The translations under genes and the position numbers were made by a program. A stretch of DNA of 32,000 bases from an uncultured Clostridia bacterium (GTDB lineage: Bacteria > Bacillota > Clostridia > TANB77 > CAG-508): contig CALXMH010000004.1 of the NCBI GenBank assembly GCA_944389425.1, positions 1 to 32,000 on the forward strand, written 5' to 3'. Below the pieces are notes generated by a model. The model ran no database searches, was not told where the DNA came from, and was given only the letters and a program-made list of their open reading frames with translations. Positions 8,347-8,529 of this stretch are shown piece after piece. Every line of letters begins with the position of its first letter. The first letter of the stretch is position 1.

Positions 8347-8529
8347 GCCGATAGGAGTTAGATTAAAATTTATTACGTTCCTCGGCACGCCTGTGTGGTC
8401 TACAAACTCTAATAGAACATCAAACGAGCCTCTCGAAAGAACGCGCCCTCATTTAATGTTAATAAGAGTTTGTACGACCACTCCGGCTACATTCGTCGCT
8501 CCATAAATTTTAATCTAACTCCTATCGGC
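8347..8529 (+). repeat. perfect 27-bp inverted repeat (8347-8373 / 8503-8529) around a 129-nt GC-rich insert
   Basis: gccgataggagttagattaaaatttat and its exact reverse complement. The insert contains an inner stem, 8395-8410 / 8465-8481, with one bulged G. Confidence 0.9.

Follow-up and report, generated by a model that had tools for sequence, protein, structure and literature searches.

What are the two perfectly paired hairpins that stand upstream of two pilin-like genes in positions 1 to 32,000 of contig CALXMH010000004.1 from an uncultured Clostridia bacterium (GenBank assembly GCA_944389425.1)? This 32-kb stretch, analyzed as a whole, is referred to as the window; it is chromosomal, low in GC and Clostridia-like, with smpB, uvrB, uvrA, murD and mutS2 present. 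The two hairpins occupy the equivalent site in two paralogous leaders 10.3 kb apart, both of which run in the order promoter P1, ribosome-binding site (RBS) and small open reading frame (ORF), terminator-like hairpin T1, hairpin, AT-rich stretch, conserved box and pilin-like gene. On balance, we favour the view that they are copies of a non-autonomous hairpin repeat element, similar to REPINs (doublets of repetitive extragenic palindromic, or REP, sequences that form hairpins) and to miniature inverted-repeat transposable elements (MITEs), which is optional in the leaders and is not a leader-specific RNA switch. Loci from other assemblies are cited below by L numbers.

The two elements (copy 1, of type 1, and copy 2, of type 2) consist of the following parts:

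8341–8346, left outer box of copy 1, GCAGCC, which reads GTAGCC in most relatives
8347–8373, left arm of copy 1 (type 1), from the inverted-repeat search
8374–8502, core of type 1, 129 nt, starting with TACGTTCCT and holding an imperfect inner hairpin at about 8393–8482
8503–8529, right arm of copy 1, from the inverted-repeat search
8530–8538, right outer box of copy 1, TACTCTATA, the identical 9-mer being found directly 3' of the right arm of the L091 element
18711–18716, left outer box of copy 2, GTAGCC, helix 1 being GTAG/CTAC
18717–18743, left arm of copy 2 (type 2), with a hypervariable dinucleotide at 18721–18722
18744–18799, GC-rich core of type 2, 56 nt, 89–98% conserved and in the same orientation in other assemblies
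18800–18826, right arm of copy 2, with a hypervariable dinucleotide at 18821–18822
18827–18834, right outer box of copy 2, TCCTCTAC, with TACTCTAC in relatives

The arms of copy 1 (GCCGATAGGAGTTAGATTAAAATTTAT) and of copy 2 (GCCCTAGGAGTTCATATATATTATTTT) are 27 nt long and 100% complementary, with 129 and 56 nt between them, respectively, so that the coordinates and spacing given in a first-pass annotation of this DNA proved exact. When the inverted pairs of the window were ranked by length, the two hairpins came third and fourth, and they are the longest among those that are both perfect and closely spaced. Copy 1 folds with -76.5 kcal/mol (z -9.0) and copy 2 with -55.5 kcal/mol (z -8.7), and none of 200 shuffles equalled either value. 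From arm to arm they measure 183 bp and 110 bp, short and of MITE size (under about 300 bp), and neither contains an ORF of note of at least 20 aa. The same annotation had stated that the copies share only the base of the stem and enclose GC-rich inserts, and both statements were borne out: only GCC(N)TAGGAGTT is common to the two, the distal 14–15 nt being unlike, and the GC content is 0.48 (copy 1) and 0.59 (copy 2) in the cores against 0.30 in the arms and about 0.2–0.3 in the surrounding leader. Three of its statements needed amendment. The exact stem length of 27 bp applies to both window copies and to this genome only, the perfect arms of related copies measuring 21–32 nt; the inner stem of copy 1 is present but imperfect (8401–8413/8462–8474, 13 nt, 92%), and is widened to about 8393–8410/8465–8482 in the minimum-energy fold; and although the proposed AGCC/GGCT flanks exist in both copies, the outer feature kept across homologues is instead GTAG...CTAC, which pairs over a small asymmetric loop. 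The window had no Rfam match at gathering thresholds, and a search of 8000–8750 with E up to 10 returned chance-level matches only (E of at least 1.4).

Homologous leaders were obtained by looking up the window proteins and their relatives in public assemblies, which gave about a dozen other assemblies, and by searching metagenomes with a pattern of the small ORF, which gave 109 more leaders. The scan of a genome collection yielded a single locus, L001, in an uncultured Clostridium metagenome-assembled genome. There were 0 matches in metagenomes to a terminator-box pattern and 0 in viral contigs to exact patterns of the terminator box and the core/arm junction, and types 1, 2 and 4 were all without a match in plasmid and phage collections. 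Type 2 was found in L012, L018–L023, L025 and L028, with invariant arms (GGAGTTCATATATATTATTT) and cores 89–98% identical. Type 3 (L026 and L140) matches type 2 in the 14 distal nucleotides of its arm and has a homologous core, its proximal block being changed from GGAGTTC/GAACTCC to AACTATAA/TTATAGTT or AAATATAA/TTATATTT. That the arms are, as a general rule, copies of the insertion target was rejected on account of this pair: set in the same leader context, types 2 and 3 agree in core and distal arm and diverge in the proximal arm.

Nine distinct type-2 and type-3 copies were aligned over a 26-pair stem. Both partners had changed in nine of the 26 pairs and a single partner in none, 98% of the cells were paired, and the co-variation score was not reached by any of 500 shuffles and lay far above that of slid registers. 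In the other element types the arms are wholly different, yet perfect within each copy. The co-variation that the first-pass annotation had read from two copies is thus real, and its suggestion that further homologues be checked for compensatory changes was answered by a stem that stays paired. The consensus fold of the same nine copies showed no convincing internal co-variation in the core. Only one cell of the whole stem is a G.U pair, in a recombinant copy, and of the five single mismatches seen in natural variants, all but one read A.C on the sense strand.

These patterns bear on the reading that the hairpin is a selected RNA of the leader, namely a duplex that forms in P1 read-through transcripts and is cut by RNase III or bound by a protein, thereby uncoupling or stabilising the pilin mRNA. 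The great stability of the fold and the co-variation agree with such a role, as does the place of the element between terminator and gene, which is constant in about 12 leaders; in L012, where the proximal box is missing, only about 20 nt separate it from the RBS, and there it must be part of the 5' untranslated region (UTR) if the gene is expressed. The manner of change, however, is not that of an RNA helix. T1 of copy 1, a genuine RNA hairpin 45 nt 5' of the element, is strand-specific in its fold (-25.1 kcal/mol for the + strand and -0.8 for the complement) and has G.U in 8 of its 22 pairs (36%), whereas none of the nine changed positions of the stem is one-sided, G.U is confined to a single cell and the mismatches are mainly A.C on the sense strand. 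Since one-sided changes are absent and G.U is so rare compared with T1, the complementarity appears to be of the DNA type. Moreover, the conserved proximal box, a possible promoter of the gene itself, stands 3' of the element in the window, and Rfam offered no match. Selection on an RNA helix is accordingly the less likely cause of the perfect arms, and as a whole we regard the RNA reading as rather unlikely, for reasons to which its distribution adds.

The element is absent from most leaders. Among 99 leaders for which 450 nt or more of downstream sequence could be surveyed, types 1–3 were present in about 10 and other types in two more (L128 and L100), and about 90 had no element. Leader L027 possesses P1, the small ORF, T1 and the conserved box, and at the element site holds only CTACTCTACA, an empty site. 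L001 carries, 'solo', a stretch homologous to the left flank and left arm of copy 1 (z 4.4; 2 of 1000 shuffles as high) with neither core nor right arm. In L012 (3256–3800) a type-2 element, following an 84-aa ORF, is found where the window (8030–8720) has type 1; the promoter and small ORF of copy 1 are retained there, the downstream leader is much shorter and the conserved proximal box is missing. L020 is a recombinant of two parents with its breakpoint inside the element. The leaders are mosaic and have been exchanged between loci. A gene of the PDDEXK_2 family (Rpn-like recombination-promoting nucleases) adjoins element-bearing leaders in L018 (1140–1967), L019 and L026 (2812–3396), which may be a coincidence or mark a candidate partner in module recombination.

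Nor is the design restricted to pilin leaders. A scan of 862 kb of collected DNA for perfect, AT-rich arms of at least 18–20 nt that enclose a GC-richer core returned 19 elements of about eight types, and those outside pilin leaders lie at several loci, not many (L091, L048, L130, L042 and L074). The element of L091 (1439–1618) begins 5 nt 3' of the stop codon of an unrelated gene. Its left box, GTAG(G)CC, the sequence TACTCTATA directly 3' of its right arm and, at the identical position, its core start CGTTCCT all recur in copy 1, and its arms, perfect over 32 nt, are unrelated to those of copy 1. Type 4 is present in the leader L128, is cut off by contig ends in the leaders L046, L058, L075 and L110, and also lies between unrelated genes in L048 and L130; its arms show a compensated block change (AGTAAA/TTTACT versus AACCAA/TTGGTT), and in L128 the orientation of its core to the gene is the reverse of that in types 1–3. 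Types 6 and 7 are intergenic between other genes and are linked to the family by the design and the core end TCACTGC.

An RNA switch specific to the leader is therefore disfavoured, because the stem is Watson-Crick-like, the element is optional, copies exist outside leaders, where they follow or separate unrelated genes, and type 4 can be oriented against the leader. Of the selected RNA or DNA structure proposed in the first-pass annotation, what stands is the co-variation and an asymmetry kept at the stem base (see below); what finds no support, given a stem that pairs by Watson-Crick rules only, about 90 of 99 leaders with no element and the non-leader copies, is a leader-specific regulatory RNA. 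Perfect, co-varying inverted repeats do not by themselves count as evidence of a selected RNA. Replication template switching perfects imperfect inverted repeats and homogenises their arms (PMC7202029, PMC8604942), so that perfect complementarity can arise without selection; and REPINs, which are dispersed hairpin-forming doublets, commonly show compensatory changes across their hairpin (PMC3116915).

The favoured REPIN/MITE-like reading may be put as follows. The element, 110–183 bp long, is bounded by GTAGCC on the left and TACTCTAYA on the right; its stem has an asymmetric bulge or loop at the base and long AT-rich arms, perfect in each copy and unlike between copies, and its core is GC-richer, with conserved arm-side ends. 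It would have entered a subset of the multi-copy leader modules, with which it now travels and is exchanged, as well as unrelated intergenic sites; we infer this mobility from the distribution described above. The arms would be kept perfect by a DNA-level process acting on a folded single strand, candidates being i) templated correction from arm to arm during replication (quasipalindrome template switching), ii) copying during propagation, or iii) both. Since the element lies between the unit of P1, small ORF and T1 and the proximal box with its RBS, a transcript reading through T1 would carry a 27-bp duplex, long enough for RNase III, and this might serve as a processing or insulating point, as a side effect or a secondary use. 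An effect of the element on expression of the pilin-like gene is thus plausible.

Several observations weigh against this reading. The window types 1 and 2 were found in pilin leaders only, and the link to the dispersed copies consists of shared flanks and core ends (type 5) or of the design (types 4, 6 and 7), the similarity between cores of different types being not significant, overall or beyond the core ends. The first-pass annotation had named, as what would refute a selected structure, a stem belonging to a MITE at many unrelated loci; elements of the same design do lie at several such loci, while types 1 and 2 were seen in leaders only. No target-site duplication was seen beside the arms or outer boxes in the window, L091, L042, L074, L048 or L130, and none of the ORFs of the 32-kb window encodes a transposase or recombinase, RAYT included. 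The arms are the most variable part of the element, differing almost wholly between types 1, 2/3, 4 and 5. Types 1, 2, 3 and 5, finally, all retain a 5'-sided asymmetry of 3–4 nt at the stem base (as in GTAGCC-GCC-C against G-GGCTAC). Simple homogenisation by template switching should erase such an asymmetry, and its conservation argues for selection on a specific folded structure, possibly a functional site.

A second peculiarity of the stem is a dinucleotide at arm positions 5–6 of type 2 (18721–18722/18821–18822), which differs in almost every otherwise near-identical copy. It is TA, TG, TC, TT or AT in the left arm, with the exact complement in the right arm in four of six type-2 variants; one of the mismatched cases is the two-parent recombinant L020. 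Taken together, the dinucleotide and the asymmetry suggest that some protein recognises the folded structure. We see a slim chance that the element is a folded single-strand site, composed of GTAG/CTAC boxes, a strand-marking asymmetry of 3–4 nt, a paired stem of free sequence and a hypervariable 2-bp exchange point converted in concert on both arms, and used by an unknown recombinase or nuclease of gut Clostridia to move or swap leader/pilin modules, which, if true, would be a Firmicute counterpart of attC or REPIN biology, or else that it is a stalk releasing the GC-rich core as a small RNA.

The corresponding general alternative, that of a structure-specific site functional by itself (attC-like single-stranded DNA for module exchange, or the stalk of a small RNA), draws on the conserved outer boxes and core ends, the asymmetric bulge or loop and the variable, always paired stem; on recombinant leaders that break in or beside the element; and on a GC-rich core in an AT-rich genome, as is typical of structured RNA. 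We nevertheless consider it improbable. Inspected by eye, the attC core sites are not in the required order: copy 1 contains GTTAGAT and ATCTAAC but in reversed order, and copy 2 has no match, so that identity with attC was rejected. The window holds no cassette array or integrase, the cores have neither convincing internal co-variation nor significant similarity between types, and ordinary homologous recombination within an identical stretch would account for the breakpoints.

Inverted repeats 5' of a surface-protein gene also have the geometry of an inverton, in which a site-specific recombinase, crossing over at the hypervariable dinucleotide, would flip the core and so switch pilin expression. 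Serine invertases have a crossover dinucleotide, to which the hypervariable one, reverse-complementary between the arms in four of the six type-2 variants, would be parallel, and contigs L002, L014, L021 and L022 end inside or at the edge of the element. Such breaks, though, would also result where strains differ or a leader is repeated: L012 has type 2 at the type-1 position, and the leader itself is a repeat. The orientation of the core relative to both flanks is the same in all 12 assemblies that allow it to be judged (types 2 and 3), which speaks against the inverton listed among the options of the first-pass annotation, although a rare minority orientation would escape a comparison of assemblies, and the relation of flank to core is fixed across types. 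In addition, no promoter- or terminator-like site was found in 8374–8502 or 18744–18799, a segment of 56 bp is very short for inversion, the sequences beside the dinucleotide lack dyad symmetry, and no recombinase domain was found among the window ORFs. An inverton is thus very improbable for these hairpins. One point counted in its favour comes from the leader L133, where inverted copies of GGGGACGT...TGGGGACACATC (3410–3459 and 3630–3678) flank about 170 nt with TTGCTT-N18-TAAAAT 5' of a pilin-like gene; there the repeats have the look of a classical inverton, one distinct from the hairpin element. The same repeat family occurs at 8037–8082, directly 5' of the copy-1 promoter, and in the leaders L128, L091, L110, L065 and L133, with an internal palindrome in some copies.

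Two ideas on the cores were also dropped. A circular permutation was considered, as the 8-mer TTCCTCGG is common to the 5' end of the type-1 and the 3' end of the type-2 core; for cores of such length this coincidence has a chance of about 1 in 5 and is not significant, and the permutation is unneeded once the cores are compared in one orientation with other family members. A G-rich box upstream in copy 2 (GGCGTGGGTGGG), tried as a pairing partner of an inverted core, is absent or variable in relatives.

The 'solo' arm of L001 leads to a further possibility, that the hairpins are a local by-product, descended from a single inverted duplication in an ancestral leader, neither mobile nor functional, and preserved in perfect form by template switching. 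In L001 the homologue of the left arm of copy 1 is indeed ordinary leader sequence, and template switching is able to perfect inverted repeats (PMC7202029). We give this possibility the least credence, since it leaves unexplained both the elements with the same flanks and the same core ends at unrelated loci and the conserved asymmetry of the stem base.

The leaders in which the favoured REPIN/MITE-like element resides contain the following features, all on the + strand:

8094–8122, promoter P1 of copy 1, a strong TAGACA-17-TATAAT with 11/12 matches, conserved in the two-leader alignment
8163–8216, small ORF of leader 1, MNKMAESGLGVHTHTHR followed by a stop, with (CA)8; RBS GAAGGAG upstream, motif kept in 109 metagenomic leaders
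8257–8312, T1 hairpin and T-run of copy 1, G.U-rich, with 14 Watson-Crick and 8 G.U pairs
8615–8647, conserved box GGTTAGTAGTTTTAGAAGATAATATGATAAGAT, possible proximal promoter P2, with extended -10 TGaTAAGAT, from pattern and conservation
8690–9760, pilin-like gene 1, N-terminus MIKGKKSGITLIALIITIIVLLILAGVA
18479–18507, promoter P1 of copy 2, again TAGACA-17-TATAAT, from the promoter scan
18547–18591, small ORF of leader 2, MAESGLGVHTHTHR followed by a stop, with (CA)8, from translation and sequence
18632–18681, T1 hairpin of copy 2, with 14 Watson-Crick and 8 G.U pairs
18890–18922, conserved box and putative P2 of copy 2, from alignment and pattern
18953–20279, pilin-like gene 2, its ATG at 18953 being one base off the pilin frame that runs from 18987

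The pilin-like proteins have a type IV prepilin-type N-terminus, and one homologue is encoded next to a prepilin peptidase gene. The conserved proximal box (GGTTAGTAGTTTT.G.AGATAATATGATAAGAT) includes the extended -10-like TGnTAAGAT; a scan for consensus promoters made no call at 8615–8647, and the box is a putative promoter on the grounds of its pattern and conservation. The small ORF of both leaders ends in ...AESGLGVHTHTHR and a stop and includes (CA)8. Over 99 metagenomic leaders, the (CA)n run of this ORF (...AES..VHTHTHR, then a stop) has 4–21 units. Gain or loss of one unit moves the stop codon toward or away from the following terminator hairpin, which has the appearance of a translation-coupled attenuator under slipped-strand phase variation. 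The AT-rich stretch 3' of the element holds short tandem repeats, TATTCAT-like heptamers (18840–18875), and GTAAAA hexamers precede the gene (18925–18945); both vary in repeat number by strain (L018–L025) and are further hypermutable tracts of the leader. Pilin-like gene 2 has a run of A5 at 19001–19005 where the counterpart in copy 1 is A4. Since the +1 offset between ATG and pilin frame recurs in L001 and L012, a sequencing error is probably not the cause, and phase variation or programmed frameshifting is possible.

Elsewhere in the window, several housekeeping genes are divided into overlapping ORFs or truncated: murD (21576–22986), uvrB (12650–14540), uvrA (15364–18187) and an aldehyde dehydrogenase gene (6370–7407). 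The split of murD (313 + 172 aa) and the aldehyde dehydrogenase of 345 aa were found again in independent assemblies, and the splits are therefore a feature of the organism or a systematic error, not one of a single assembly. Two near-identical terminator-like hairpins (9765–9829 and 11174–11229), each followed by AAAATGATAAAAT, enclose an ORF of 456 aa (9796–11166), which suggests a duplicated or inserted cassette.

If confirmed in complete genomes, the hairpins would represent an undescribed REPIN/MITE-like element of uncultured low-GC gut bacteria. Its layout is unusual, with variable arms, conserved flanks and core ends, and a 2-bp mutational hot spot that changes in concert on both arms. 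Residing in leaders already rich in hypermutable repeats, it may add to the strain-to-strain variability of pilin-like gene expression.

Among known systems, integron attC sites are recognised in folded form, and have a variable length and stem, short boxes at the base and unpaired bases that mark the strand. The present elements are similar in their variable stem, short conserved basal boxes and strand-marking bases, but R'' (RYYYAAC) and R' (GTTRRRY) are absent or misordered, the window shows no integrase or cassette array, and the stems, imperfect in attC, are perfect here and accompanied by conserved core ends. In Clostridioides difficile, cwpV and flgB are controlled by invertible switches in the 5' UTR. 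These resemble the elements in having inverted repeats of about 21–30 bp around a short segment between the promoter and a gene for a surface structure in a low-GC Firmicute; unlike them, the elements keep one orientation in 12 assemblies, have cores down to 55 bp and no orientation-dependent terminator or promoter that could be found, and occur in the same design away from such genes. The Correia elements of Neisseria, about 100–155 bp long with 26-bp terminal inverted repeats, are transcribed into hairpins that are cut by RNase III. With these and with MITEs in general, the present elements share size, long terminal inverted repeats, intergenic or UTR position and the potential for a duplex of RNase III size, whereas copies of a MITE have the same terminal repeats and carry target-site duplications, and here the arms differ and no duplication is visible.

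A tetranucleotide of the GTAG type is a hallmark of REP sequences, and one stands beside the palindrome in the elements described here. Like REPINs, these elements are short, non-coding and dispersed in extragenic DNA, with inverted arms and a spacer that give a long hairpin in single-stranded DNA or mRNA, and show compensatory changes in the hairpin (PMC3116915); both are also asymmetric at one end. They differ in that REPINs have highly conserved 16-mer ends and a variable spacer, whereas here the arms vary and the outer boxes and core ends are conserved; in that the REPIN unit is a short imperfect palindrome, whereas the arms here contain no internal hairpin beyond CCTAGG and AT runs; in that REPINs are mobilised by RAYT transposases, of which the 32-kb window has no gene; and in their hosts, a proteobacterium for REPINs and a low-GC, Clostridia-like gut bacterium here. 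Because the layout differs and neither a target-site duplication nor a cognate transposase was seen, we do not file the element as a REPIN or a MITE; of the kinds described so far, REPINs are the closest.

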